This document shows positions 3,905-42,117 of a stretch of DNA of 64,000 bases, in pieces. A program made the translations under genes and the position numbers. Below the pieces are notes generated by a model that worked only from the letters and a program-made list of their open reading frames with translations, did no database searches and was not told the DNA's origin. Within the stretch, counting starts at the first letter, position 1; each line of letters begins with the position of its first letter. Origin of the DNA: Escherichia phage pEC-M2929-1AR.1; the sequence record OP177727.1. One strand, given 5' to 3'.

Positions 3905-5638
3905 TTAGTCAACCTGGATGGTTCCCATAGTACGAAGAACCTCTACATCAACACGGTTGCGGATATCAGTGAATGTTTCATCACGTCCTTCTACTTGTGG
4001 TGTAATAACCTTACCATTCTTGAAGATAACTTGTAACTCATTGTCTTCATCCTGGATATCTTTAAAAGAAAGATTATCTACAAGAGAAAGATTACCATTG
4101 GTATCCTTAACAACCTTAATAAAACCTTTTGCAGAGCGTTTACCAGGATCAGTTTTAGGCTCCTTACTTACCAAAATTTCGTGTTCACCGATGATACTAC
4201 CTGTTGCTTTAACAGCAAAACCAAAAGTATCTCGTGTATTGAACTGATAAGTATAACTACCAACACCAAATACAATATTGGAAGCTGCAAAACCTTTCTT
4301 CTTCAGTCGGCGTAAGATCTCGTGTTCTCGTTCAACAGTAATAGAATCACCATAAATCATACCGATATGCTGATCAAGAACCTTGTAACCTTTTCGGTTG
4401 ATAGTACCACCAAACACTTCCCAAAGGATTTGAATAGAACCTACTGCTTCACAATAAGGAATCTCATAAGTTTCATCAATGCAATCAGCAACACTGCAAT
4501 CCTGAAGAACATTGTAATACTTATTAACATCAGCCAAATGAACTACTTCAGTGGCTGTCGCAATACCATTATTTAAGAGGTCTTCATAGTTATCAAAAGA
4601 TTCAACATTGTATCCTGCAACAACTTTAACCGGATCTCCTGAATCTGGACGAATAACAAGACGACCATTTCGTGACATAATGGAATCTTTCAATTCTACC
4701 AGAATGCGAGTCAATACAGCCCAATAGTCATAAGAGTCTGCTACATATGAACAAAAACCTTCTGGAACAATTTCTTCGATATAACGACGAAGAAACTCTT
4801 TTTCTGCTACATAACGAAGCCCATCTACATCATCTTTAAGATGTGGAAAATGTTTCTTCAGATCTTCAACAATAGCTCCAATGTTAGTCGTTGCTACTGA
4901 ATGTTCTGTTGCCGGAATCGAACCTGCAACAAACTGATCATAATCAATACCATAATAATCATGCACAGTTTCAATAGCCAGAATATTATCTGTTCCTGTG
5001 AACGATGCCAAGTGAGCGATACCACTCTTATAACCATCTTCGATATTACTTAAACCACGTAGGCTAAAGTCATGACACTGGAAGTTAACGTGATCAATAT
5101 TATCACACGTTGCCATCGCATATGCCATAGCGATACGCTTATACTGAAAAGCTGCTGTAGCGTTAGTCATTGTCTTCCAAGTTTCATCTGACAACAGTGT
5201 TTCCACATAGTTAGTTAACCAAAAGAATTTTTCTAAAGTATTATGCACAGTAAACACAGGAACACCAATAGGACACAAAACACCTTCTGGCAGAGATCGA
5301 ACTTCCAGCGGAAGATAACCTAAATCGTGCAATTCTCCCCAACATTCAGCAGAAGGAGCAGAAGCACCTAATGCATTTTTAGACATACGATAAAATTTAT
5401 TTACTGCTGCACTACGAGACATTTTAAAGAAGCTATCCCACATAGTTACAAGAGCATCAGTGACTGCTCGACGAATACCTAAAACAATCACACCACGTGC
5501 TTCACGATCTGCATAGTGTGCAAAGTTTTTATCATTACGAGGAGTTAAATTAGAGAAAATAAGTTTTGTATTTTGGTTGTACATCTGCTTGTGACCAGGT
5601 TTGTACCAATCAGTAGCAAAAGGTGCAAAAATATTCAT
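3905..5638 (-). CDS. nadV: nicotinamide phosphoribosyltransferase family protein (NadV/NAMPT-like; candidate Namat of a NARP1-type module)
   Basis: 577 aa; NAMPT-family blocks DWYK, LPLEVRSLPEG, FTVHNT, HDFSLRG, SFTGTDN, RPDSGDP recognised by eye against known NAMPT sequences. Confidence 0.85.
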   Translation of the reverse strand: MNIFAPFATDWYKPGHKQMYNQNTKLIFSNLTPRNDKNFAHYADREARGVIVLGIRRAVTDALVTMWDSFFKMSRSAAVNKFYRMSKNALGASAPSAECWGELHDLGYLPLEVRSLPEGVLCPIGVPVFTVHNTLEKFFWLTNYVETLLSDETWKTMTNATAAFQYKRIAMAYAMATCDNIDHVNFQCHDFSLRGLSNIEDGYKSGIAHLASFTGTDNILAIETVHDYYGIDYDQFVAGSIPATEHSVATTNIGAIVEDLKKHFPHLKDDVDGLRYVAEKEFLRRYIEEIVPEGFCSYVADSYDYWAVLTRILVELKDSIMSRNGRLVIRPDSGDPVKVVAGYNVESFDNYEDLLNNGIATATEVVHLADVNKYYNVLQDCSVADCIDETYEIPYCEAVGSIQILWEVFGGTINRKGYKVLDQHIGMIYGDSITVEREHEILRRLKKKGFAASNIVFGVGSYTYQFNTRDTFGFAVKATGSIIGEHEILVSKEPKTDPGKRSAKGFIKVVKDTNGNLSLVDNLSFKDIQDEDNELQVIFKNGKVITPQVEGRDETFTDIRNRVDVEVLRTMGTIQVD

Positions 5639-5709: not shown

Positions 5710-6603
5710 TTAAAAATTCCACACATATGGAGATACAATTTGTTGTTGCAAATCTGACTGATTCTTAACAAGAACACCGGAATCTTCTTGGATGTTATCT
5801 TCCCACACATTAAGAGAGTGAATACAGTCAAAGTGCTCACTTAACTCTTTAAGACCTTTAGAAAAGATACCGTGTGTAACATATAGCTCAATCTTACCTG
5901 CGTTACGAGCACGTAGCACTTTAGCCAATTCGATAAAAGTTCTACCACCATCACAGATATCATCTACGATCATCAGGTTACGCTTATTGAAATCCTGTAC
6001 AGAAATGTCTGTACGAACAATAGCACCTGTTGCGGTATCTCTAACCTTCTCTGCACAGAACACATCTAAAGACATTTTCTTAGATAATTTAAATATTTTC
6101 TTAAGAGCACCACCATCAGGGCTAACAAGAGCAAAATTCTCCATACGTAACTTCCACTTTAAAGTTTCGTAAGCAATCTCTTCTTGAGGTATTACACAGA
6201 GTCTGTCAAACACTGCTGGAGTAACATCACTATGCGGATCAGCAACGATAACACGTGAGAAATTTAATGAATTAATTATAGAAGCAAATGCTTTAACTCC
6301 AAATGCTTCCCCAGGCTCACACACTCTGTCTTGTCGTGCATACGGCACATACAACATGAGTAAATCAACACAATATGGTTTATGATATAGCATATTGTCC
6401 AATGCATTCTTAGTCATAACCAAAGTCATCAAGTCTTTAGCAGATCTTACTTCTAAAGTGAGTAAGATTCTGTCTGTAGTATGATTGAAAACTGATAGAT
6501 TCGTATCTAACTGAACATGTTGTTCTCCACCAGAGAATGTAAACACTTTAACGTCTACATCAGTAACATAACAGTCAACACCATGCAGAATACTAACTTT
6601 CAT
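5710..6603 (-). CDS. prs: ribose-phosphate pyrophosphokinase family protein (Prs-like; candidate Adps of a NARP1-type module)
   Basis: 297 aa; PRPP-synthetase blocks VPYARQDR, LVSPDGG, PRPP-binding loop MIVDDICDGGRT, VTHGIFS. Confidence 0.8.
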   Translation of the reverse strand: MKVSILHGVDCYVTDVDVKVFTFSGGEQHVQLDTNLSVFNHTTDRILLTLEVRSAKDLMTLVMTKNALDNMLYHKPYCVDLLMLYVPYARQDRVCEPGEAFGVKAFASIINSLNFSRVIVADPHSDVTPAVFDRLCVIPQEEIAYETLKWKLRMENFALVSPDGGALKKIFKLSKKMSLDVFCAEKVRDTATGAIVRTDISVQDFNKRNLMIVDDICDGGRTFIELAKVLRARNAGKIELYVTHGIFSKGLKELSEHFDCIHSLNVWEDNIQEDSGVLVKNQSDLQQQIVSPYVWNF

Positions 6604-13440: not shown

Positions 13441-14163
13441 ATGATCGAGAATTTTTTCAAACAAGTAAAAGTGGACAATAGCTTCTTTATCAAGGCTGCC
13501 GATCAAATTGTTGCTTGGAATGCTAAGGCACGTGGTGGCGTAACCCCAGAATTTACTCAAGAGATGTTTGAAGCTCAACTTTCTTTTGTACGAGAAGAAC
13601 TAAAAGAGTTCCAAGCAGCAGCACAGGAAAATGATCACGTTGAATTACTTGATGCAGCAGCAGATATTTTTGTGGTAGCATCCTACCTGGCATTTATGTT
13701 CTTTGGTAAAGAAGGTGTTGATAAAGCTCTGGAAATGCCGACAGGAGATGTTCTGGCAGAAAACATTTACGACGTTATCATTGAATTTGATAAAATGATA
13801 GAAAATGACTTGCAATTTGCCCTAATGTCTCTTACACTTACACGTATGGCACGAGATACTTTGGTACGTTCTGTTTATAACGAGAAGAAGGTTATGCGTG
13901 AAGTGTTGAATAGCAATGAGTCCAAGTATCCTACCAAAAAGCAACTCCTGGCTATTTGGGAAACTAAGGATATTGTTGAAGCTCTTGAAAAAGAGTGTGA
14001 TGCTATCGAGATGCGAAGCAAAGATCGTGCAGAAGGTTCTTATACTGGAGTACATGCTGTATATAACGAAGTTCAAAAGGTATACGTATTCTTTGATGAC
14101 AAAGGTAAAATTATGAAGCCATCTACCTTTGTTAAACCTAATATCGCAGCAATCATTGCTTAA
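13441..14163 (+). CDS. MazG-like all-alpha NTP pyrophosphohydrolase (tentative)
   Basis: EExxE...E..D pattern (REELKEFQAAAQENDHVELLDAAADIF) resembling MazG/dCTPase family; GGAGAAACA RBS. Confidence 0.35.
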   Translation: MIENFFKQVKVDNSFFIKAADQIVAWNAKARGGVTPEFTQEMFEAQLSFVREELKEFQAAAQENDHVELLDAAADIFVVASYLAFMFFGKEGVDKALEMPTGDVLAENIYDVIIEFDKMIENDLQFALMSLTLTRMARDTLVRSVYNEKKVMREVLNSNESKYPTKKQLLAIWETKDIVEALEKECDAIEMRSKDRAEGSYTGVHAVYNEVQKVYVFFDDKGKIMKPSTFVKPNIAAIIA

Positions 14164-30872: not shown

Positions 30873-31625
30873 ATGGGAAATAAAACCGCAAAGGCTCGTC
30901 GTCAATCAGCAGCCAATGATGACAAACGTGCCAGTCGTTATGCGGCTAAAGCAGTAGGAAATGATGATTACCGTCTTGATGAATTTACCCCTGTTGGGAA
31001 TCAAGAAGCTATTGTAAGAAGCATGGTTTGGAATGATTTAACCATTGTTAATGCCCCAGCAGGAACAGGAAAAACGACAACAGCACTATGGAAAGCATTG
31101 CAAATGCTTAAAGCTGGTGACTTCAGAAAGTTGATTTTCCTTAAAAACCCGACAGAAGTAGGTGATGACCAAATTGGTTTCTTATCTGGAGATAAGACTG
31201 ATAAACTAGCAGCACACTACGAGTCAACTAAAAGAATTTTCCAACAGTTTATGACTGCAAATAAATTGGAAAACGATATTGCAAGTGGCAAAATTGAACT
31301 TAATATTCCGAACTATGCACTAGGTGCTACGTGGGATAACAGCATTATTCTTATTGATGAAGTTCAACTTATGTCACCAAACACAGTAAAACTTCTCCTT
31401 GAGCGAGCAGGTCTTAATACACGTATTGTCATTATGGGCGATGTTAATCAAACATATGCAATTAAACGAAGAGCTAACGGGTTAGGTGATTTGTTAGATC
31501 GTGTTGTTCCTATTAACGAAGAAGGAGAAAGGGAAGCTATTGTAGATTTTATTGGTTATGTTGAAATGACAACTGCTGATAACCAACGTTCCCGTTTGTC
31601 TCAGTTCATCACGGAAGTATATTAA
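30873..31625 (+). CDS. phoH: PhoH-like ATPase
   Basis: Walker A VNAPAGTGKTT and PhoH-like length (250 aa). Confidence 0.8.
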   Translation: MGNKTAKARRQSAANDDKRASRYAAKAVGNDDYRLDEFTPVGNQEAIVRSMVWNDLTIVNAPAGTGKTTTALWKALQMLKAGDFRKLIFLKNPTEVGDDQIGFLSGDKTDKLAAHYESTKRIFQQFMTANKLENDIASGKIELNIPNYALGATWDNSIILIDEVQLMSPNTVKLLLERAGLNTRIVIMGDVNQTYAIKRRANGLGDLLDRVVPINEEGEREAIVDFIGYVEMTTADNQRSRLSQFITEVY

Positions 31626-31661
31626 TAATTACAAGGCAAGGATGCCTGTTATGGAGGTTAA

Positions 31662-32156
31662 ATGACGCTAATTGAGATTGATCGCAATGGTATTGATGAA
31701 TGCTATCAAGCTGGCTTAGTTAAGCCGAATGAGTTTAGACAGATTTATATTGACAAGATTGAAAAAGAAATATCTCTTCGTTTAGAGAACATGACAACTT
31801 TGCAAAAAGTTCAGATGTTTTTTAGTTGGTTAAAAGGAGAGGATTGGCTAACTAAATATTACCAGGAATTATCTGATAGTCAAGAAGGCTTGTTTGAGTG
31901 TATAATAAATGTAGCTGGGTCTAATTCAGAATTACTCCTGATTGATGAAGAAGATTCTAAACTTCTTTTTCTTAGCAGTATCTTTCACAAGAAATCTATG
32001 TTAGTAAGAAATTGCAGTGATTTACTAAATCATCCACTAACAAGAACCAATAAAATTCTTGTGGATAAAGAAACACTAAGAGCTATTGATTACCTACGTA
32101 AGTATGTAAGCGGTGGTAAAGCAGTCCTTAAAACACTACAGGAGGAAGTACAATGA
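31662..32156 (+). CDS. hypothetical protein (164 aa)
   Basis: ORF track; GGAGG RBS. Confidence 0.5.
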   Translation: MTLIEIDRNGIDECYQAGLVKPNEFRQIYIDKIEKEISLRLENMTTLQKVQMFFSWLKGEDWLTKYYQELSDSQEGLFECIINVAGSNSELLLIDEEDSKLLFLSSIFHKKSMLVRNCSDLLNHPLTRTNKILVDKETLRAIDYLRKYVSGGKAVLKTLQEEVQ

Positions 32157-32806
32157 CAACAATTATTGCAACACATAACAAAATTCTATCTGACGGTAAA
32201 GTAACAGTAGGTAATCGAGTAGACACTTTAAATTTCAAGAAAGTGCGTAAAATTGGGGATTACCTTGTTGGTGGTGCAGGACGTCTGTCTTCTATCCTGA
32301 CTTTCTTTTCTTGGTTCGAACAAAACTTACAGTGCCAGGCAGCACAAGAGACAATCCCAGGTTTGGTGATCCAGTCAGATCCTGATAAAGAAGATGAAGA
32401 GTTTGTGGCATTGGTTGTTCACCCAGACGGTAAAATTTATATGCACGAGGGTAATAATCCAACGCGAGCATATCCTTTAACTGAAGATTACTATGCTGTT
32501 GGTAGTGGGGCAGATTTTGCTTTAGCAGCTTTAGACGCTGGGGCAACCCCAGAAGAAGCGATGGAAGTTGCAAAACTACGAGATGCTTTTTCAGGCGGTG
32601 AAACTTTTGTCGAAGAGATCGAAGAACAACTGGAGCTAACAGCGGAAGATATTCTGAACTTCAGCAAGGAGCAACTAATTAGTATGCTGTTGACTGGTGA
32701 TCCTGATAGTGATGAAGCTGAAAGTATTTTAGCAGAGATGAAAGAATCACAAGAAAAAGTATTGACAGTCTCTGAAAAACTTGATAAAGTATCCTCTGAT
32801 AATTAA
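32153..32806 (+). CDS. HslV-like Ntn-hydrolase peptidase with acidic C-terminal extension
   Basis: MTTIIA (Thr right after Met), GGAGRLSSILTFFSWFE and AVGSGADFALAAL blocks parallel E. coli HslV (TTIVSV..., AGFAGGTADAFTLFELFE, AIGSGGPYAQAAA). Confidence 0.55.
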   Translation: MTTIIATHNKILSDGKVTVGNRVDTLNFKKVRKIGDYLVGGAGRLSSILTFFSWFEQNLQCQAAQETIPGLVIQSDPDKEDEEFVALVVHPDGKIYMHEGNNPTRAYPLTEDYYAVGSGADFALAALDAGATPEEAMEVAKLRDAFSGGETFVEEIEEQLELTAEDILNFSKEQLISMLLTGDPDSDEAESILAEMKESQEKVLTVSEKLDKVSSDN

Positions 32807-32814
32807 TCTAACAT

Positions 32815-32838
32815 AAACCCCCTCACGGGGGTTATTAG
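32815..32838 (+). terminator. terminator-like hairpin (ACCCCCTCACGGGGGTT)
   Basis: GC stem-loop after stop of upstream gene followed by T-containing tract and RBS of next gene. Confidence 0.4.
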
Positions 32839-32846
32839 GAGGAGAT

Positions 32847-33275
32847 ATGTTACCAGTACCTGTAATCTTTGTAGAAAAAGCCTACTACTCTTTAGAACAA
32901 AACTGTAAAAGGGCTAAAAATTTTATTGAAAGTTTAGCAGAACAGCGTTACACTGTATCTAAAAAGAGATGGTTCAGAACTTCACAATATTTAGTCAACC
33001 CTTTCGGAGAAGTTCGTGTGTTGTACGGCAACACAGAAAATATCTTAGAAAGAATGTTAGAACTAGATAGGATCTCCTCCTGTGATTATCAACTGTTGAA
33101 ATTTTACGATGTGTCAGAAAACGTTAAAAACTTTCTTGACGACTTATGTAAACGAAAAACAGAAGAAGATACAATACCAGTATCTATGGAAGAATTAACG
33201 TTCTTAAGAGATATTATGGTTTTTGAAGAAAACCCTGAAATCACAAAAGAGGAGATTTTAAGTAGTGGCAAATAA
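32847..33275 (+). CDS. hypothetical protein (142 aa)
   Basis: ORF track; AGGAGGAG RBS. Confidence 0.5.
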   Translation: MLPVPVIFVEKAYYSLEQNCKRAKNFIESLAEQRYTVSKKRWFRTSQYLVNPFGEVRVLYGNTENILERMLELDRISSCDYQLLKFYDVSENVKNFLDDLCKRKTEEDTIPVSMEELTFLRDIMVFEENPEITKEEILSSGK

Positions 33276-33774
33276 GTATGATCGTCCACCAACTGATTAC
33301 TATCCTACTCCACAAAAATGTATAAATGCATTATTTAGTGTAATAGATTTTAATAACCTTAAAGAAGAAGGTTTTATTTTTGCAGAACCGTGTAAAGGTG
33401 CTGCTGCTGCAATTTATCAACATTTTCCAGAAGGATCAGAATATTGTGAGTTAGAAGAAGGGAAGGATTATTTTAACCACGAATGGCATACTAAGCCGGA
33501 TATTATAATCACAAATCCACCATTCAGACTTGCACTTGAGTTCTTGCAAAAGAGCTTAAAAGAAGCAGACGTTTGCATATACTTGTTGCGTCTTGGGTTC
33601 CTAGAGTCTATTAAACGAAGGGAATTCCATAAACAGAACCCACCAACAAATTTGATTGTTCTTTCTGAACGACCATCTTTTGTTGCAGGTGGTACTGACA
33701 AGACAGCATATGCTTGGTACGTCTACGACCCAAAAAACAGGCTGGGTTTAACTCAACCTTTCTATTTTGTTTAA
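33265..33774 (+). CDS. small DNA N6-adenine methyltransferase-like protein
   Basis: FAEPCKGAAAA (SAM-binding motif I-like) followed by IIITNPPF (motif IV NPPF). Confidence 0.5.
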   Translation: MANKYDRPPTDYYPTPQKCINALFSVIDFNNLKEEGFIFAEPCKGAAAAIYQHFPEGSEYCELEEGKDYFNHEWHTKPDIIITNPPFRLALEFLQKSLKEADVCIYLLRLGFLESIKRREFHKQNPPTNLIVLSERPSFVAGGTDKTAYAWYVYDPKNRLGLTQPFYFV

Positions 33775-33787
33775 GAGGAGCATTTTT

Positions 33788-34018
33788 ATGACCGAGAAAT
33801 TTATTGTTACTATGGAACTCACCTTTGATGAAGAAGATTTTGATCTTCATGTATCAACTAAAGCAGATAACATTCACACAACACAGAGTGTTGCAATCGC
33901 TATGTTCTTTAAGCAAGCAATTGCAAAACAAGCTGAAGTGTGTGCTGGTTTAGCTGTAGAGTACGCAGAAGTTGTCAAGGTTCTTGAAAGTGCTCGAAAC
34001 AACGATTGGGATGAATAA
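33788..34018 (+). CDS. hypothetical protein
   Basis: Track ORF 33767-34018 trimmed to ATG at 33788 after AAGAGGAG. Confidence 0.45.
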   Translation: MTEKFIVTMELTFDEEDFDLHVSTKADNIHTTQSVAIAMFFKQAIAKQAEVCAGLAVEYAEVVKVLESARNNDWDE

Positions 34019-34221
34019 TGGCATACAATTACTATCTGGTATATTTTAACGAAACTAAGAAAAAAGACACAGGAACTAATGTTTATGCGGAATCCGAAGA
34101 ACACGCAAAAGCTATTGGTTCAGTGCTTCTTTCTAGAATAGCAGGTGAAGAAATTCCTGTAGAGGCTATCTTTGCAGAAGTTGACCCTGATATTCAAGAA
34201 GATGATATTACCACTACTTAA
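34018..34221 (+). CDS. hypothetical protein (67 aa)
   Basis: ORF track; ATG overlaps upstream stop. Confidence 0.45.
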   Translation: MAYNYYLVYFNETKKKDTGTNVYAESEEHAKAIGSVLLSRIAGEEIPVEAIFAEVDPDIQEDDITTT

Positions 34222-34278
34222 CTGTTGACTTTAACATTGAGGTAGTGCATACTTCCTGCAACAGAACAGGAGGGTATT

Positions 34279-34941
34279 ATGAAGTTTGTACTGTATCATC
34301 GACTTTCTAAGAAGAAACAACAAGGCAACCAGTATGGTATAGAGTCACAGGAAGCAGATATCCAACGCTTCCTGGATTCACAAGAAAATTATACTATTGT
34401 AGGTAGCTTTGCAGAGTTTTATTCTGGTAAAGGCGATTGGAAGCAACGTAGAGAGCTTGTAAAAGCTGTTAATCTTTGCAAAGAAACAGGTGCTACACTT
34501 GTTGTTGCTAAGGTTGACCGTCTGGGACGTAACACAGCTTCTGTTGCAACCTTGTTAGAGATGATTAATGTACGGATAGCCACTATGCCCTCCGCTGAAA
34601 ATATGATAATAAATATTTTAGCAGTTCTGGCAGAAGAAGAGGCTCGTGCAATATCTGATCGTGTTAAGAAGAGCCTTAAGGTAGCAAAAGCGAAGGGAAC
34701 GCTTCTTGGTGCAGCAAACCCTAAATACAAAAGAACAGATTATACGAAAACGGAAGAAGCAAAACGCTCAAAAGAGTTTGCACTTTCTTTAAAAGATTCT
34801 TTAGTTGCATACAGAGCTTGTAAAACGCCATATATGACGATTGCAAAGCATCTGAATGAATCAGGAAAGAGAACTATTCGTGGGAGTTTGTTCGATGCCA
34901 AAGCGGTACAACGTCTTTGTGCAAAATTGAATATTAAATAA
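34279..34941 (+). CDS. small serine recombinase (resolvase/invertase family)
   Basis: N-terminal catalytic domain YHRLSKKKQQ (Ser near position 10) and VVAKVDRLGRN; 220 aa. Confidence 0.65.
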   Translation: MKFVLYHRLSKKKQQGNQYGIESQEADIQRFLDSQENYTIVGSFAEFYSGKGDWKQRRELVKAVNLCKETGATLVVAKVDRLGRNTASVATLLEMINVRIATMPSAENMIINILAVLAEEEARAISDRVKKSLKVAKAKGTLLGAANPKYKRTDYTKTEEAKRSKEFALSLKDSLVAYRACKTPYMTIAKHLNESGKRTIRGSLFDAKAVQRLCAKLNIK

Positions 34942-34950
34942 GGAGGAAAC

Positions 34951-35154
34951 ATGGCAGTTCAATCTTTTGAGGAGACTGTTAAAAAACAATTCCTATCGAA
35001 GCGAGCGATGGTTGAATTTTTGCATTTTCTCGAAGTAGATAGGGTACTTATTGAGACTACACCAGATGGTAACTGGCAAGTCTCGTATATTGCCACCAGG
35101 CATATCGTAGACAGTACGAAAGAAGAAAGTTCGGAAGTTACGGTTGCTAGTTAA
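34951..35154 (+). CDS. hypothetical protein (67 aa)
   Basis: ORF track; AAGGAGGAAAC RBS. Confidence 0.5.
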   Translation: MAVQSFEETVKKQFLSKRAMVEFLHFLEVDRVLIETTPDGNWQVSYIATRHIVDSTKEESSEVTVAS

Positions 35155-35165
35155 AGGAGTTAAAT

Positions 35166-35738
35166 ATGCGTTTAGCTTTTAACGGGAAGATAAGCACAGC
35201 AAACATATTGTCAGCAGTAGGATTATTAGGTAAAAAATTCACACCTTTCAGTTTACCAGTTTGTGTAGATTTTGATCATGTGTTTGATATTAATAATCCT
35301 TCACGTTGTATCGCCAGAAGTAATATTGATAACCCAAGTGAAAATCTGTTTTATATTACTAAACCATCCCAAGCAATTTTGAATCAATGGGAAGCAGGTC
35401 TGATTAAACCAGGTAAATATTTTGCATTACTACCTTGTAAATCATTGGCTATAGAGGACAGTCTAAACTATGCAAACAATCTTGTTGTTACAGCATTCAT
35501 TGTCTCAGAAAAAGAAGAAACTGCGGCACTTGCAAATACTGTTAAATCTTTGTATGATGCTTTGGGTGTTACTTACACTACATTCGTTTGTGAAGATATT
35601 CCACATTGCGTTGAATTTGTAGTAAATGGTGTAACTGTATGTCGTGTAGAAACAACGCAAGATGAGGACGTTTTTATTACTGTAGCCGATGTAATATCTG
35701 AACCTGTGTTTAGTTACGCAGTTTCATTAACACATTAA
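35166..35738 (+). CDS. hypothetical protein (190 aa)
   Basis: ORF track; AAAGGAG RBS. Confidence 0.5.
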   Translation: MRLAFNGKISTANILSAVGLLGKKFTPFSLPVCVDFDHVFDINNPSRCIARSNIDNPSENLFYITKPSQAILNQWEAGLIKPGKYFALLPCKSLAIEDSLNYANNLVVTAFIVSEKEETAALANTVKSLYDALGVTYTTFVCEDIPHCVEFVVNGVTVCRVETTQDEDVFITVADVISEPVFSYAVSLTH

Positions 35739-35748
35739 GGAGAAGGGG

Positions 35749-36075
35749 ATGAAAATAACGACAGAACAGGCTTTAATAGACAAAGGAAGGGAAATCTTAG
35801 AAAGTCATTTGGAGGATATTCAAAGGACTCCAGGGTATCTCGGCTGGCGTATACAAGAAGCCGTCGATTTTCTACCCCGCAAAAATAAAGAGATTGAGGT
35901 AAGATCTCTATTCCTCCTTGTTAAAGTAGATGGTGACGCTATATACAAAGATGTAGCGTCTCACATTGAACAAATAGAAGAAAAAGCCTACAAAGAATTT
36001 GCAGATCTTGTTGTAGAACATAATATAGAAGGTAAAGTTAATATCTTTATACTTATGGATTTTGAGGAGAGTTGA
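35749..36075 (+). CDS. hypothetical protein (108 aa)
   Basis: ORF track; AAGGAGAAGGGG RBS. Confidence 0.5.
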   Translation: MKITTEQALIDKGREILESHLEDIQRTPGYLGWRIQEAVDFLPRKNKEIEVRSLFLLVKVDGDAIYKDVASHIEQIEEKAYKEFADLVVEHNIEGKVNIFILMDFEES

Positions 36076-36818
36076 TGCTAGTATATCAAGAAATTAGTGT
36101 AAAAGATGATCAAGACCTGTTTATTATTGGTGATTTACATGGTTGCTTTGATTTATACCAGAAAGGTGTTAATACTTTAGGTATCCGAGATCAAGATGTT
36201 GTTGTATCTTTAGGAGATCTTACAGATCGCGGCAAGCAGAATTTTCGTTGTACCGTTGAATTCACCAGAAAGCTAAATCGCTATGCTATTCGTGGAAATC
36301 ACGAAGATATGATGATTAAAGGGTTGCTAGAAGGTGATAGGCGATATTACGAATGTTGGTTTCAGAACGGAGGCCATACAGTTCTAAATGAGTGTGGAGA
36401 AGAAGGTGCAACTGCTCTTGCTTTGATGCTAGAAGACTTACCTGTTGTACTTGTTGTCAATTATCGTAATATGAAACTAGGCTTTATTCACGGAGGGTAT
36501 CCTTCAGTTTTGGAACATTTACCAGTGACAGAAGTTTTGCCATTTTGTTTGAATATGGATAAAGAGCAAGTTTCTCGATTCACAGAATCTTTAATGTGGG
36601 ATCGTGATATGATAGATTGCGCACTTGAAGGGATTCTTCTTCCTAGAGTTTCAGGAGTAGATTATGTATTTCACGGGCATTCTTATGTTCCTAAACCTGT
36701 AATTAGCAGTAATAGGGTATATATGGATACAGGATCTTGCTTCAATGGTAATTTAACCTTTGCATATTTTGATGATTCAAATACGTTACAATTTTATTCT
36801 ACTCTAGAGGAGGACTAA
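36072..36818 (+). CDS. Ser/Thr protein phosphatase (PPP-family metallophosphatase, lambda-PPase-like)
   Basis: GDLHG, GDLTDRG and RGNHE metallophosphatase signature motifs in canonical order. Confidence 0.75.
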   Translation: MMLVYQEISVKDDQDLFIIGDLHGCFDLYQKGVNTLGIRDQDVVVSLGDLTDRGKQNFRCTVEFTRKLNRYAIRGNHEDMMIKGLLEGDRRYYECWFQNGGHTVLNECGEEGATALALMLEDLPVVLVVNYRNMKLGFIHGGYPSVLEHLPVTEVLPFCLNMDKEQVSRFTESLMWDRDMIDCALEGILLPRVSGVDYVFHGHSYVPKPVISSNRVYMDTGSCFNGNLTFAYFDDSNTLQFYSTLEED

Positions 36819-37138
36819 TGTATAAAGTCACAATTAAAGAGACGGTAGGGAATATTACGAAAGAAACTACTATTGAAACGGAAGACGTTGAGTTAGTCAA
36901 AGAGCTTTTATTTCCAAAGTCAGAAATAAAAGATAATGACGAACAGTTGGATGAAGATAACGATACAGCAAGGGATAAATGGAAAAAACAACTAGCGGAG
37001 ATTTGGAAAAAGCCTCAAGTAACGCCTCCATTTGATCCTCGTACACCTTATAGTCCTTGGGAAATTGGAAGCCCTTGGTTTACGTACCCTATTACTCCAA
37101 TTGTTACTCCCAGTATTATTCCCAATATTACTTGTTAA
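36818..37138 (+). CDS. hypothetical protein (106 aa)
   Basis: ORF track; ATG overlaps upstream stop. Confidence 0.45.
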   Translation: MYKVTIKETVGNITKETTIETEDVELVKELLFPKSEIKDNDEQLDEDNDTARDKWKKQLAEIWKKPQVTPPFDPRTPYSPWEIGSPWFTYPITPIVTPSIIPNITC

Positions 37139-37148
37139 GGAGAAAACC

Positions 37149-37727
37149 ATGAGCGATTTATTCTACACAGGTGTTGGTAGCAGAGATATTACAGACGAAG
37201 AATGGGACACTATGGTAGCTGTTGCAAAATGGTTATCTACATGGTTCATTTTGCGATCTGGTAAAGCAGAAGGTGCAGATTCCGCATTTGAATGCGGGGT
37301 ATATGATAGTGGAAACAACACAAAGAAAGAAATATACATTCCTTGGCCTTCGTTTAAAGGTAATGAGATAGAGGGAGAGGTTATTGTTCTTGACAGACCA
37401 GATAGTGTAAACTATGCTCTGACCTTGCAATATGCAAAAGAATTGCATCCGGCTTGGGACAGATTATCTCAAGGTGCTAAAAAATTGCATCAAAGGAATA
37501 TCCACCAAGTTCTTGGCAAAGATCTTGAGAATCCAAAACCGTCTTGTTTTCTTTTAGCTTGTGCAAATACAGATAAAAATGGAGATCCTTTGGGTGGTAC
37601 AAGAACAGCTTGGATGTTGGCTAAAAAGTTTAATGTTCCTTGTTTTAATATTCGAGGTAAAAGTAAAAAACAAATCTTCGAATTTATTAAACCTATTTTA
37701 GAGGAGAATGGTCTTGTCCAGAAATAA
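37149..37727 (+). CDS. DprA/SLOG-like Rossmann-fold protein (tentative)
   Basis: GVGSRDIT, SGKAEGADSAFE and QRNIHQVLG blocks resemble DprA/Smf-type Rossmann domain; ATG at 37149 after AAGGAGAAAACC. Confidence 0.35.
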   Translation: MSDLFYTGVGSRDITDEEWDTMVAVAKWLSTWFILRSGKAEGADSAFECGVYDSGNNTKKEIYIPWPSFKGNEIEGEVIVLDRPDSVNYALTLQYAKELHPAWDRLSQGAKKLHQRNIHQVLGKDLENPKPSCFLLACANTDKNGDPLGGTRTAWMLAKKFNVPCFNIRGKSKKQIFEFIKPILEENGLVQK

Positions 37728-38232
37728 TATAAGCGTCATTAAAGATAGCTTTATTGATGTAACAAACGATATTGTACCTACAATACAATATATAGTTGAG
37801 GCACAAGGTTTAAACTTCATACGTGATAAAGTTAAGATCGTTTTTCATAATACTCCAGGTTTTGTAACAGTGGGTTCAACAAAAACACCGTGCACTACAG
37901 ATCTGATTACTTTAGACAAAAACTTAACACAAGAAGAAGTAGAAATTCTTAACCTCTATTGGTTAGGTTTTAAAAGATACGAGGATACAGCTTTATCCCG
38001 AATGTCAACTATTTTAGCTAATATTCTGGTTCGGAAAATTTCTAAAATATGGGATGAAGAAAATCCAGATGAAATAGTTTTACACTTTGCTAAACCGGAA
38101 GATGGGGCATACGATATAGACACATCTGAAATGGCTTATGGGTTTATTATTTCTGGTAATGTCTTACAGATGGAATCTTTATTGTATGTTGAGACAGTAA
38201 AACACAATAACAATTACGAGGAGGTTGTATGA
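37708..38232 (+). CDS. hypothetical protein (174 aa)
   Basis: ORF track. Confidence 0.45.
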   Translation: MVLSRNNISVIKDSFIDVTNDIVPTIQYIVEAQGLNFIRDKVKIVFHNTPGFVTVGSTKTPCTTDLITLDKNLTQEEVEILNLYWLGFKRYEDTALSRMSTILANILVRKISKIWDEENPDEIVLHFAKPEDGAYDIDTSEMAYGFIISGNVLQMESLLYVETVKHNNNYEEVV

Positions 38233-38486
38233 AAGGTTTAGAGTTTAACTTTGTAGATGCGTGGGAAGGATGGGATGAACTAGGAGTAGGGGATTTATGT
38301 TTTTATGATGTTACCTTGAAGGAAGAATACAAACATCTAGCTCCTAGTGAAGATTGCGATGTGATTCTATCTATTCTATTAAGTCAGTCTATAGTGCAAT
38401 TCGATTTCTTAAAAGGTAGTGAATGTATTGAAAGTAAAGCATTCCGTTTGGAAGTTTCTCTTGGTGAAGAAATTCCTGTAGAATAA
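38229..38486 (+). CDS. hypothetical acidic protein (85 aa)
   Basis: ORF track; ATGA overlap with upstream gene. Confidence 0.45.
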   Translation: MKGLEFNFVDAWEGWDELGVGDLCFYDVTLKEEYKHLAPSEDCDVILSILLSQSIVQFDFLKGSECIESKAFRLEVSLGEEIPVE

Positions 38487-38489
38487 TAT

Positions 38490-38515
38490 AAACCCGCTTC
38501 GGCGGGTTTTTTTTG
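38490..38515 (+). terminator. strong intrinsic terminator (AAACCCGCTTCGGCGGGTTTTTTTT)
   Basis: GC stem with TTCG loop and 8-T run immediately after stop codon. Confidence 0.8.
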
Positions 38516-38544
38516 TTGACAACACCAGTTTTTTCGAATAAACT
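38516..38544 (+). promoter_or_regulatory. sigma70-like promoter (TTGACA-N17-TAAACT)
   Basis: Consensus -35 hexamer directly after terminator, 17-nt spacer, -10-like TAAACT, then AAAGGAG RBS of 38571 gene. Confidence 0.5.
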
Positions 38545-38570
38545 ACACAAAAACAGAAAAGGAGATTAGC

Positions 38571-38984
38571 ATGTATTATAGTGACTATTTTGTAAACCCA
38601 ACAAAAGAACAACTTCAATCAGCAGTGGATAAGATGCAGATTGTAGTTAAAGAATGTGAGAAAATAAGAAAACAACTACAAGAAGAGACTGTTGTTGTTA
38701 GTAAATGGTTTGGTCTTAGAAAGAAGGTTGTTAGTAAACACAATATCATCCTTGAAAAAGCAAAAACGACAGGAACTAGTTACGCCTTACAAGGCTTGTT
38801 GCTAAATTACATTGATATAGAACAACATTCTCTTCTGCACTGTTGGCTCCACAGTCCTAGTATTGAGGATCTCTTGTTCTGGTTATCGTGTGAATCTGTA
38901 CTTTTAAATGAAAATGAGGCTTACCGTTTAAACTTCTGCTTGAAGGCAGAATTACCAGCTAGTGTTAAGGAGAAGAAGCAATAA
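38571..38984 (+). CDS. hypothetical protein (137 aa)
   Basis: ORF track; AAAGGAG RBS. Confidence 0.55.
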   Translation: MYYSDYFVNPTKEQLQSAVDKMQIVVKECEKIRKQLQEETVVVSKWFGLRKKVVSKHNIILEKAKTTGTSYALQGLLLNYIDIEQHSLLHCWLHSPSIEDLLFWLSCESVLLNENEAYRLNFCLKAELPASVKEKKQ

Positions 38985-39973
38985 TGAAAGTTTTAAGTCT
39001 TTTTGATGGTATGTCAGGAGGAATGCTTGCACTAAAAAGTGCAGGTATTGAAGTAGATAAGTATTATGCCTCAGAATTGGACAAATTTGCCATAGCTGAA
39101 AGCCAAGCCAATTTTCCAGATATTATTCAATTAGGTGATGTTACAAAATGGAGAGAATGGGATATCCCGTGGGGAGAAATTGACCTTTTGTTAGGTGGTA
39201 GCCCGTGCCAAGGCTTCTCTTCTTCTGGTAAGGGTTTGAACTTTCAAGATCCGCGATCTAAACTGTTCTTTGAATATGTTGAAATTCTTGAACATATTAA
39301 AAAGTTTAACCCTAATGTTAAGTTCATGCTTGAAAACGTTAAGATGAAGGTGGAGTGGGAAAACGTGATCACAAGTTACTTAGGTGTTGATCCCGTATTC
39401 ATTAACTCCGCAGATTTCACTGCACAGAATAGACAACGTTTATACTGGTGCAATTGGGAAATAAAACCTTGGGATATTACCAATGAAGTGTTGCAAGATA
39501 TCATTGAAGATGATAGTATCGTAGACAGAGATAAGGCTTATTGCATAGATGCAAATTATGCCAAAGGTGGTAATATAGAACAGTATTTTGAAAAGAGTCG
39601 CAGACAACTGGTTTTTTATCCAGCAGCAATATATGGGCGTAGAATTAATGAAAATGGCAAACGTAGTACATCTAAAACTGATCGTTTGGTACATTGCTTG
39701 GAAGTTCAGGACAGTGAAAAAACTCGTTGCCTCACGACTGTGCCGAAAGACGTACTATTAGCCTACATTCCACCTGGAAGATATCTGGATGCCTTTGAAA
39801 AATTGAGTGAAGGTGTGCATTATAGAAAGTTAACGGTTAAAGAGTGTTGCCGCTTACAAGGTGTTCCAGATGATTACTTTAAAGTGAGTAGTAACACACA
39901 AGCATATAAGATGTTAGGTAATGGTTGGACTATACCTGTCATTGCACATATTCTTAAGTGTATGGAGGAATGA
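38984..39973 (+). CDS. DNA (cytosine-5)-methyltransferase
   Basis: FDGMSGG (motif I), GGSPCQGFS (motif IV with catalytic Cys), ENV (motif VI). Confidence 0.85.
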   Translation: MKVLSLFDGMSGGMLALKSAGIEVDKYYASELDKFAIAESQANFPDIIQLGDVTKWREWDIPWGEIDLLLGGSPCQGFSSSGKGLNFQDPRSKLFFEYVEILEHIKKFNPNVKFMLENVKMKVEWENVITSYLGVDPVFINSADFTAQNRQRLYWCNWEIKPWDITNEVLQDIIEDDSIVDRDKAYCIDANYAKGGNIEQYFEKSRRQLVFYPAAIYGRRINENGKRSTSKTDRLVHCLEVQDSEKTRCLTTVPKDVLLAYIPPGRYLDAFEKLSEGVHYRKLTVKECCRLQGVPDDYFKVSSNTQAYKMLGNGWTIPVIAHILKCMEE

Positions 39974-40088
39974 TGGAAACATTGTGGAAAGGCTGGAAGA
40001 CTGCTCTGATAGCTTTTATAATTCCATTAACTTTTCTTGGTTGGTGTTTTTGGGAATTTATCTTTTGGTTAATTTCCCATATACATTG
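39963..40088 (+). CDS. small membrane protein (about 41 aa)
   Basis: Hand-translated MMETLWKGWKTALIAFIIPLTFLGWCFWEFIFWLISHIHWG; GGAGGA RBS; below track cutoff. Confidence 0.35.
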
Positions 40089-40096
40089 GGGGTAAT

Positions 40097-40708
40097 ATGA
40101 CTCAAAAAGTTGCATATCAAGTAGATCGTGAAGATGGTGAAGGTAGTGTTGTAGTTTTTGATACACATGGTCTTGCAGCAAGACGCAAAGGCGCTTGTAT
40201 GCTGGATATTGGTGGTGAAGATGAATACTGCACTGTACGTAGAGTAAAAGAATTTGATCAATACGCTGAAAAAGGTTTTGTACCTGCGAAAGCACTATTA
40301 GAAGCTGGATGGTGGATACCTAGCGCACATGATTATGATATTTTGGAGTCAGATACAGACGATTTTAACAGTGAGAATTTTGTTTTTTCTCTGGATGAAA
40401 AATGCGTTTGGAAAGATTGGGATGAAATGGAACGCCATGCTTATTTTATAAACGAAGCATTAGATCGTAAAACTTGGTTTGAAAATACAGTTAAAGCAGC
40501 GTATCCTCAATTTACTTTTACAGAGTTTTGGGGTGGCCCACACCATATTACCCACGTAGCATACTTCGAGTTCCCAGGCTCACGCTATAAAGGTACTGTC
40601 TATTGGGATTGGGAAGAGGACAAAGAACCTTCTGCTCAAGACTTCCGTTGCTATGTTTGTCAAGGTGATCAAGAAGCACTTGACAACTACCTTAAAAGTC
40701 TGGTATAA
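40097..40708 (+). CDS. hypothetical protein (203 aa)
   Basis: ORF track; GGGGG RBS. Confidence 0.5.
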   Translation: MTQKVAYQVDREDGEGSVVVFDTHGLAARRKGACMLDIGGEDEYCTVRRVKEFDQYAEKGFVPAKALLEAGWWIPSAHDYDILESDTDDFNSENFVFSLDEKCVWKDWDEMERHAYFINEALDRKTWFENTVKAAYPQFTFTEFWGGPHHITHVAYFEFPGSRYKGTVYWDWEEDKEPSAQDFRCYVCQGDQEALDNYLKSLV

Positions 40709-40724
40709 TCCGTAAAACTTAACC

Positions 40725-40750
40725 AAAGCCCCAACTAGGGGCTTTATTTG
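40725..40750 (+). terminator. terminator-like hairpin (AAAGCCCCAACTAGGGGCTTTATTTG)
   Basis: GC stem-loop with short T tract between 40097 gene and next gene. Confidence 0.45.
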
Positions 40751-40762
40751 TCTGGAGGATAT

Positions 40763-41317
40763 ATGGGTTTTGATGATATGTTATTATATGAGGAGGCTTG
40801 TGTGAAAGAAGCTATGGCTTTACCAGTTTTATCTATTGATATTACAACAGTAGACACTTTTTCAGATTGTGAAACGTGTGGATCGTATTCATCTATTGTA
40901 CATGAAGTCAGTGGGGATTTAGGCACTTACGAAGATGGAGATTATGCAAGTTGTTTAGGTGATAATCGAGATGGTGAAGTGGCGAATGTTGCAAACTGGA
41001 TTGCTTCTAAGTTAAAAGAAAGAAATCGTCCGTTCCCTAATCTTCTTACACCAGAAGCTATGCTTAAAGCTGAAGAAGAGATGTATGATTATGGTGATAA
41101 AGTAGCTCATGATTACAATGATCCTAATTATAAAAAATTGAGTGATAAGTATTGGGAACTAGCTAATGCTTATGATAAATACTACTCTACAGAAAACATT
41201 GTTAAATTGTTTTTAGATTTTGGAGTAGAAATTAATTGGGATTTCGAAGAGGAAGAGCGTTACGACGCATCTTCTTGGGATGATGATTACGAAGAGGATA
41301 TTGAATGCGAAGAGTAA
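40763..41317 (+). CDS. hypothetical acidic protein (Asp/Glu-rich C-terminus)
   Basis: Track ORF 40748-41317 trimmed to ATG at 40763 after GGAGGATAT; C-terminus EEEERYDASSWDDDYEEDIECEE. Confidence 0.5.
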   Translation: MGFDDMLLYEEACVKEAMALPVLSIDITTVDTFSDCETCGSYSSIVHEVSGDLGTYEDGDYASCLGDNRDGEVANVANWIASKLKERNRPFPNLLTPEAMLKAEEEMYDYGDKVAHDYNDPNYKKLSDKYWELANAYDKYYSTENIVKLFLDFGVEINWDFEEEERYDASSWDDDYEEDIECEE

Positions 41318-42117
41318 TTTTTGTCAGTGGTGCAGGTTTAAGTGCAGACAGTGGGATTCGAACATTCCGAACAGACACAGACAGTGGTCGTGCTTTATGG
41401 GAAGAATATGATTTAGAAGAGGTCTGCGATATTGGAGCTTTCCAAGCAGGTTATCGTGTGAGAACATCTCCAGATCTTCCAGTGGTTGGTGGTGTAGACG
41501 AAAATGGTATGGATTTGTATGCCAAAACACACGAATTTTATAACAAAAGACGTGTTGAGCTTAAAGATGTACAACCTAATGCTGCACATATTCAAATAGC
41601 AAAGTGGTTTAAGGAATATCCTAACCAAGTAATAAACTTGACAACAAACGTTGATGATCTACTAGAGCGAGCAGGTGTAGACAGAGATTCGGTTATTCAC
41701 GTGCACGGATATCTTCCTGAAGTAGTTTACCGTATGCATCCTGGAGATTACAAAACACTGGTAGATATTGGTTACAACAGCATAAACATAGATGATTATA
41801 ACTGGGTGAAGCCTAATGTTGTATTTTTTGGTGAGGCTGCACCTTTGTATGCAGATATGGCTCACTTGTTCGATACTTTGACCATGCAAGATTTGGTTGT
41901 TGTAGTAGGATGTTCAAACCAAGTTATCAATTTTAATTGGGAATTATTCCCTGCACTTAATATGGGTACAAAAATGATTGTTGTTAACCCAGGAATTAAT
42001 TACGAAGAAACTCTTCTTTACGAAGATAGAGGAGTCTTTGTTTATCGAGAAAAAGCCGCAGATGCTTTTAGCAATCCTGCTTTCATAAAAATGATAGAAG
42101 ATCATTTGACTAAATAA
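41305..42117 (+). CDS. Sir2-family (sirtuin-like) NAD-binding protein lacking zinc-ribbon cysteines
   Basis: GAGLSADSGIRTFR, TTNVDDLLERAG, HVHG, VVFFGE and VVVVGCSNQV blocks in sirtuin order; no CxxC pairs between the His and FGE blocks. Confidence 0.7.
   Translation: MRRVIFVSGAGLSADSGIRTFRTDTDSGRALWEEYDLEEVCDIGAFQAGYRVRTSPDLPVVGGVDENGMDLYAKTHEFYNKRRVELKDVQPNAAHIQIAKWFKEYPNQVINLTTNVDDLLERAGVDRDSVIHVHGYLPEVVYRMHPGDYKTLVDIGYNSINIDDYNWVKPNVVFFGEAAPLYADMAHLFDTLTMQDLVVVVGCSNQVINFNWELFPALNMGTKMIVVNPGINYEETLLYEDRGVFVYREKAADAFSNPAFIKMIEDHLTK

Follow-up and report, generated by a model that had tools for sequence, protein, structure and literature searches.

Methyltransferase, phosphatase and DprA-like genes in the one-directional arm of a Justusliebigvirus coliphage are probably independent accessory genes

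In the genome of Escherichia phage pEC-M2929-1AR.1 (OP177727.1), we analyzed the stretch from 33265 to 39973 of a window of 64,000 nucleotides (nt), to which all positions refer. A preliminary description of this DNA had named four genes here and read them together as an "anti-restriction and host-signalling interference block": a small methyltransferase with an NPPF motif (33265-33774), a Ser/Thr phosphatase (36075-36818), a DprA/SLOG-like Rossmann protein (37149-37727) and a C5 cytosine methyltransferase (38984-39973). All four genes were located at these positions on the + strand. Domain and profile searches supported each of the identities, including that of the DprA-like protein, which had been trusted least. 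The two methyltransferase genes, described as about 5 kb apart in the same direction, are indeed separated by 5.2 kb and both lie on the + strand. A motif scan of all open reading frames (ORFs) of the 64 kb revealed methyltransferase catalytic motifs in just these two. The stretch also holds a serine recombinase gene and about eight short ORFs of unassigned function, which had gone unmentioned. The ratio of nonsynonymous to synonymous substitution rates (dN/dS, 0.03-0.14) indicates purifying selection on all genes of the stretch.

Comparison with phage genomes showed 100% identity of window positions 33000-40200 to Escherichia phage vB_EcoM_AMO3598 (PQ226818.1) and, among the matches listed, 97.9-99.1% identity to other Justusliebigvirus genomes, including Bas60 PaulScherrer. 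In PaulScherrer (BASEL collection, MZ501100.1; ∼98% identical) the gene order is the same, and genes bas60_0202 to bas60_0189 correspond to the stretch. The PaulScherrer record lists a putative N6 adenine methyltransferase, a putative site-specific recombinase, a putative phosphatase, a putative DprA-like recombination protein and a Dcm-like C5 cytosine methyltransferase, with a sirtuin family protein slightly further on. The genes are already annotated with the same names in public records of relatives; the earlier observation is correct and not new. As a discovery it carries little weight, the genome being deposited and the named genes already labelled in a curated relative. Every ORF between 31 and 42 kb lies on the + strand, the annotated genes of the arm are all on one strand, and GC skew is positive along the whole arm from ∼6 kb to 42 kb (∼36 kb). 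We place the stretch within the long arm of accessory and DNA-metabolism genes, all running in one direction, of a coliphage of the genus Justusliebigvirus (phi92-like, Stephanstirmvirinae). Because the whole arm runs in one direction, the shared orientation of the four genes is uninformative.

The stretch is divided by two adjacent signals on the + strand. A hairpin resembling an intrinsic terminator (38490-38509; GC-rich 8 bp stem followed by a T run) lies at the end of the unit with the genes of the small methyltransferase, the phosphatase and the DprA-like protein; in phage phAPEC8, a terminator is annotated at the corresponding position. It is followed by a sigma-70-like promoter candidate (38516-38544; TTGACA, 17 nt, TAAACT) preceding the C5 methyltransferase unit. 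A second terminator-like hairpin (40725-40745, +) closes this unit. Since the first pair separates the DprA-like gene from the C5 unit, the four genes do not appear to form one transcription unit. A perfect match to the sigma-70 consensus (12/12; TTGACA, 18 nt, TATAAT, with an extended -10 TG) is found at 40680-40709 (+), just upstream of the 40725-40745 hairpin. This hairpin is GC-rich and terminator-like on both strands, and the order of promoter and then hairpin is an odd arrangement.

The genes are also distributed unevenly among phages. In phAPEC8 the order PhoH, HslV-like protein, small methyltransferase, aminoacyl-tRNA synthetase (aaRS)-like ORF, phosphatase and DprA-like gene is kept; the recombinase is missing, and the slot after the terminator is filled by a DUF7275/DUF7277 protein instead of the C5 methyltransferase, which phAPEC8 lacks. 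Of this series, Vequintavirus MaxBurger retains the small methyltransferase, preceded by PhoH and a ClpP-like protease, and nothing else. Among 50,697 phage records, the DprA-like gene was present in 1,250, the small methyltransferase in 494 and the C5 methyltransferase, counted at ≥95% identity, in 54. The neighborhood of the DprA-like gene was inspected in five unrelated phage groups. Its neighbors there were NAMPT/phosphoribosyl pyrophosphate (PRPP) synthetase, PhoH with anaerobic ribonucleotide reductase, hoc/gp24, a split NAD-dependent ligase with replication genes, and an endonuclease; none of the five had a methyltransferase or phosphatase beside it. As a separate observation, the succession of PhoH-like ATPase, protease and small NPPF methyltransferase (30873-33774, +) is conserved in Stephanstirmvirinae and in Vequintavirus MaxBurger, the protease being HslV/proteasome-like in the window and ClpP-like in Vequintavirus.

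In a concerted module as first proposed, the methyltransferases would mask the DNA, the DprA-like protein would shield incoming DNA or stimulate the methyltransferases, and the phosphatase would reverse defence phosphorylation. The best precedent for a DprA-methyltransferase partnership comes from Helicobacter pylori, whose DprA not only inhibits type II restriction enzymes but also binds methyltransferases and stimulates them (PMC3597690). The order of the small methyltransferase, phosphatase and DprA-like genes is shared by Justusliebigvirus and Phapecoctavirus, but common descent would by itself account for this in two sister genera. Between ∼32.8 and 38.5 kb no strong terminator-like site was seen on the + strand, only two weak 6-bp hairpins. 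However, the C5 methyltransferase belongs to the other unit and is not encoded by phAPEC8, the small methyltransferase is the only one of these genes in Vequintavirus, and near-identical phages are strongly restricted by the restriction-modification systems tested. The five DprA-like neighborhoods point the same way, and these together with the phyletic data argue against a dedicated DprA-methyltransferase pairing. We therefore consider a common module unlikely. The four genes appear neither to be transcribed as one unit nor to occur together across lineages, as the members of an anti-defence block would. The one-directional arm, the signal pair at 38490-38544, the gene losses in phAPEC8 and the unrelated surroundings of DprA-like genes all weaken the block reading. 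We conclude that the stretch probably contains several independent, separately inherited accessory genes and not one system.

Three points weigh against this conclusion and the functions proposed below. The putative promoters and terminators are consensus matches only. The activity and specificity of both methyltransferases are predictions. Furthermore, the small methyltransferase might act on RNA, as METTL5 and PH1948 match its fold at the same Z as the DNA enzymes.

The small methyltransferase (33265-33774, +; 169 aa) is an amino (N6-adenine-like) methyltransferase with a gamma-type core. Its GTG start overlaps the preceding ORF (32847-33275) by 11 nt. The protein was assigned to phrog_799 'DNA methyltransferase' (E 1.7e-56). 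It has a class I S-adenosylmethionine fold in which motif I precedes a motif IV of the form (D/N/S)PP(Y/F/W), and the motifs follow the gamma-class order, YxTP being followed by EPCKG and then by NPPF. The YxTP segment aligned with that of a type I HsdM subunit. No Pfam or NCBIfam match was obtained at E ≤ 0.01, the curated DNA methyltransferase families (N6_Mtase, Eco57I, Dam, EcoRI_methylase) staying below threshold. Across 56 family members, sub-threshold matches around NPPF were most often to EcoRI_methylase (52/56), then to N6_Mtase, Dam and Eco57I; 29 of the 56 matched the generic small methyltransferase domain MTS. A PDB sequence search with the protein alone gave nothing, and one with the family profile gave weak matches. 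In structural comparison the protein resembled N6-methyladenosine enzymes of rRNA (PH1948, Z 13.3; METTL5, Z 13.1) and DNA N6-adenine enzymes (MmeI, 13.0; M.TaqI, 12.7; BseCI, 12.1; CamA, 11.9; type I M subunits), and Erm/KsgA at about 11. A target-recognition domain was not found in the single domain of the protein, and the neighboring ORFs had no recognizable similarity to HsdS or to recognition domains.

The sequence motifs suggest that DNA is the more likely target of this enzyme. That it would instead methylate RNA (an adenine of rRNA or tRNA, like METTL5) or protein glutamine, and thereby adjust host translation, is very unlikely in our view, despite the similarity in fold to the rRNA enzymes. 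The 169-aa enzyme is probably the product of an older gene, shared with Phapecoctavirus and Vequintavirinae, and would methylate adenine in phage DNA with a specificity that may be low or dependent on a partner.

The C5 methyltransferase (38984-39973, +; 329 aa) matched PF00145 over residues 1-327 (E 3.4e-43; 148.7 bits, cutoff 22) and TIGR00675 (E 1.3e-40; 140.1 bits, cutoff 100.65). The conserved motifs are in place: motif I at F7 (DGMSGG), IV at P74-C75-Q, VI at E117-N-V, VIII at Q148 (NRQR), IX near R281 and X at G312-N-G. The dN/dS of the gene is 0.07. The closest PDB sequence relatives were DNMT3A/B, M.HaeIII and M.HhaI, with DNMT3A as the best, and alignment was restricted to the catalytic core. 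SPbeta-type enzymes aligned to residues 1-154 only, and no characterized enzyme matched the recognition region (about residues 153-280). An orthologue of E. coli Dcm (NF007772, CCWGG) was considered and rejected, the score being 29.9 bits against a cutoff of 710, with only residues 280-328 aligned. With this score, 'Dcm-like' is a generic label that does not establish CCWGG specificity. Next to the 54 phage records with ≥95% identity, the closest relative among the matches listed had 52%.

The stop codon of a preceding 137-aa ORF of unassigned function (38571-38984, +; phrog_16551, E 9e-76) overlaps the ATG of the C5 methyltransferase gene, and this arrangement suggests translational coupling of the two. 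The ORF itself had no Pfam, PADLOC or PDB relative. A phage-borne restriction-modification system was likewise rejected, no nuclease partner having been detected beside either methyltransferase. Such a partner was sought by Pfam, PHROGs, PADLOC and PDB sequence searches in the ORFs 32847-33275, 38571-38984, 40097-40708 and 40802-41317, and was not found in any of them. The C5 methyltransferase is probably an orphan enzyme whose gene forms a separate cassette, bounded by the putative promoter and terminator and gained in the Justusliebigvirus lineage. On replicating phage DNA it would methylate a single short motif containing cytosine, and its protection would be limited to that motif. The label in the records is corrected in this respect: the gene belongs to a lineage-specific cassette and is no Dcm orthologue.

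Plating data describe this phage group as exceptionally sensitive to restriction-modification systems (PMC8594841). In order to see which sites the DNA avoids, observed and expected counts were compared over the whole 64-kb window. Six palindromes were completely absent, namely AAGCTT (21.3 expected), CTGCAG (9.3), GGATCC (8.6), CGATCG (7.5), AGTACT (7.2) and CAGCTG (7.2), and GGCC was found 21 times where 62.6 were expected. GATC, CCWGG and GCGC were not avoided. Taken together, the restriction sensitivity of the group and the strong avoidance of palindromes suggest that methylation contributes little beyond a narrow supplement. Restriction would be evaded mainly by site avoidance, with methylation as a narrow cover at most. 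The two orphan methyltransferases presumably protect a few motifs at most, and the sites that are not avoided are candidates for these. GGCC is an unlikely target of the C5 enzyme, because it is strongly avoided. A literature search yielded neither methylomes nor gene knockouts bearing on the methyltransferases of Stephanstirmvirinae, and no methylation data for this phage. With the unit split at 38490-38544, the patchy distribution of the genes and the restriction sensitivity of the relatives, the reading of the genes as an anti-restriction block is not supported.

The product of 37149-37727 (+; 192 aa) was assigned to phrog_768 'DprA-like DNA recombination-mediator protein' (E 1.9e-60). Its AlphaFold2 model has a SLOG fold (predicted local distance difference test score 96.8), in which a single Rossmann domain fills all 192 aa; the SAM domain and C-terminal winged helix of bacterial DprA are lacking. 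The structure prediction thus shows the Rossmann fold whose absence was to have refuted the DprA/SLOG-like identity. Structural matches were spread over the superfamily, with scores of 16.0 for MoCo carrier protein, 15.3, 14.8 and 12.1 for three DprA structures, 15.0 for TM1055, about 14 for LOG-type proteins, 13.3 for ShosA, 12.2 for YpsA and 10.7 for the ThsA SLOG domain. The protein itself did not match PF02481 at E ≤ 1 and lies below the Pfam gathering threshold. Of 57 family members, 47 matched PF02481 at E ≤ 1, mostly weakly, with a best E of 4.9e-6. A PDB sequence search with the protein alone gave nothing; the best sequence matches of the family profile were DprA chains, albeit weak ones.

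When the family was compared with E. coli Smf by hhalign and hmmsearch, the alignment did not extend beyond the first 40 residues. Motifs beyond these were paired by inspection, and by eye GVGSR corresponds to VVGSR, RSGKAEGAD to TSGLARGID, HQRN to PRRN and GGTRTA...F.I.G to SGSLVTA...FALPG. The GSR (R12) and RN (R116-N117) elements are invariant in the family. Single-stranded DNA (ssDNA) is reported to be contacted by R52, R143 and R170 in H. pylori DprA and by R139, R234 and R261 in ShosA (PMC12961424). By eye, two of these three arginines can be matched to R12 and R116 of the phage protein. Within the SLOG superfamily, the sequence points to DprA. The 192-aa Rossmann-only DprA relative would bind ssDNA and help to load or regulate a RecA-type recombinase, possibly in the course of recombination-dependent replication or repair.

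A different role of this protein would be that of an anti-defence factor, acting either as a sponge for nucleotide signals (e.g. the Thoeris signal gcADPR, a glycocyclic ADP-ribose) or as a stable stand-in for ShosA that neutralizes ShosTA abortive infection. ShosA is a DprA-like antitoxin working through ssDNA and RecA, and it is labile on shut-off of host transcription (PMC12961424). The phage protein could in principle replace it. However, the SAM domain reported to be required for ShosA stability (PMC12961424) is absent from the phage protein, no PADLOC model, ShosA included, was matched at E ≤ 0.001, and DprA proper outscores both ShosA and ThsA in the structural matches. Our literature search found no relevant paper on phage SLOG sponges. 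An anti-defence function in place of recombination mediation thus appears highly improbable for this protein. We would give a slightly better, still low chance to two broader readings of the sequences: that the Rossmann-only family, which spans about 1,250 deposited phage genomes of many families, could serve in counter-defence, by stable replacement of ShosA or by binding of SLOG-type nucleotide signals, and, separately, that the small methyltransferase could be sequence-nonspecific or RNA-directed.

The Ser/Thr metallophosphatase (36075-36818, +) resembles lambda NinI and E. coli PrpA/PrpB. It matched the calcineurin-like metallophosphatase family PF00149 above threshold (E 7.3e-14; 53.1 bits, cutoff 21.5) and phrog_246 'NinI-like' (E 1.1e-76), and the GDLHG, GDLTDRG and GNHE motifs are present in its translation. 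With NF008516 (PrpA/PrpB-type) it gave E 1e-27 and 97.6 bits, far under the 326-bit cutoff. The dN/dS is 0.13. The gene encodes an intact enzyme of the lambda NinI/PrpA type. To our knowledge, the biological substrate of lambda NinI in phage infection is not known. Interference with host signalling, which had been attributed to the block, is unsupported and, as regards the phosphatase, conjecture.

Between the small methyltransferase and the phosphatase lies the gene of a small serine recombinase of the resolvase/invertase type (34279-34941, +; PF00239, E 8.4e-22; phrog_125 'DNA invertase', E 1.3e-31). It is found in Justusliebigvirus, whose member here is a virulent myovirus, and the corresponding position in phAPEC8 lacks it. 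The inverted repeats in ∼32.8-36.2 kb are short, imperfect and such as chance would produce, and neither a convincing pair of them flanking the gene nor an invertible segment was detected. The recombinase is probably a lineage-specific addition. Two further ORFs carry synthetase labels, namely 35166-35738 (+; 190 aa; phrog_4806, E 3.7e-60), labelled 'histidyl tRNA synthetase' or 'putative aminoacyl-tRNA synthetase', and a second aaRS-like ORF at 40802-41317 (+; 171 aa; phrog_9509). Neither had a Pfam or NCBIfam match. At only 171-190 aa and without such a match, the label looks over-stated. The + strand arm ends with a Sir2-family protein (41305-42117, +; PF02146, E 1.5e-22; phrog_2162), whose gene overlaps the ORF 40802-41317 translationally and is kept in phAPEC8, where the annotation notes similarity to rV5 and PVP-SE1.

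Outside the stretch, the window holds a MazG-like nucleoside triphosphate pyrophosphohydrolase (13441-14163, +; PF01503, E 3e-7). The anti-TIR factor Atd1, a MazG-like protein that depletes (p)ppGpp, is listed in Justusliebigvirus and Phapecoctavirus (PMC11370490; bioRxiv 10.1101/2022.06.09.495361). The ORF at 13441-14163 is likely an Atd1 homologue, and it is a better-supported anti-defence gene than any in 33265-39973. A NAMPT-type phosphoribosyltransferase (3905-5638, -; PF04095, E 5e-38) adjoins a PRPP-synthetase-like protein (5710-6603, -). This pair is encoded on the strand opposite to the arm and, in the related phage alia, lies beside a tRNA cluster. It represents an NAD+ salvage pair such as has been proposed to act against defences that deplete NAD.

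The analysis corrects the picture of the stretch, the genes of which form no module. It also brings to the surface two widespread uncharacterized phage families, one of Rossmann-only DprA-like proteins and one of NPPF methyltransferases of ∼170 aa.

Compared with known systems, the locus shows no difference of substance from AMO3598 and Bas60 PaulScherrer, and the single proteins depart from their characterized relatives to varying degrees. The phosphatase shares the metallophosphatase fold family and the catalytic motifs of lambda NinI and of E. coli PrpA and PrpB, and falls short of the PrpA/PrpB equivalog (97.6 versus 326 bits). Unlike the gamma-class N6-adenine DNA methyltransferases of the M.TaqI, HsdM and Eco57I/MmeI types, the small methyltransferase has neither a recognition domain nor a specificity subunit in its 169 aa, and the rRNA methyltransferases METTL5 and PH1948 are structurally as similar to it as these DNA enzymes. 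The C5 methyltransferase can be compared with orphan phage C5 cytosine methyltransferases (PF00145/TIGR00675) such as the Dcm of phage K42 (CCWGG). Both have the full ten-motif architecture with the PCQ cysteine and lack a nuclease partner, and DNMT3A is a relative of both, being the best PDB sequence match of the C5 methyltransferase and the structural reference of the K42 authors. The window enzyme is longer (329 versus 237 aa) and, at high identity, confined to one phage genus. The K42 enzyme methylates CCWGG in multicopy single-stranded DNA and thereby triggers retron Ec86 (bioRxiv 10.1101/2023.08.16.553469), which shows that a phage cytosine methyltransferase can be a liability. The DprA-like protein, finally, differs from bacterial DprA/Smf (PF02481) and from ShosA in consisting of the Rossmann domain only and in coming from virulent phages.

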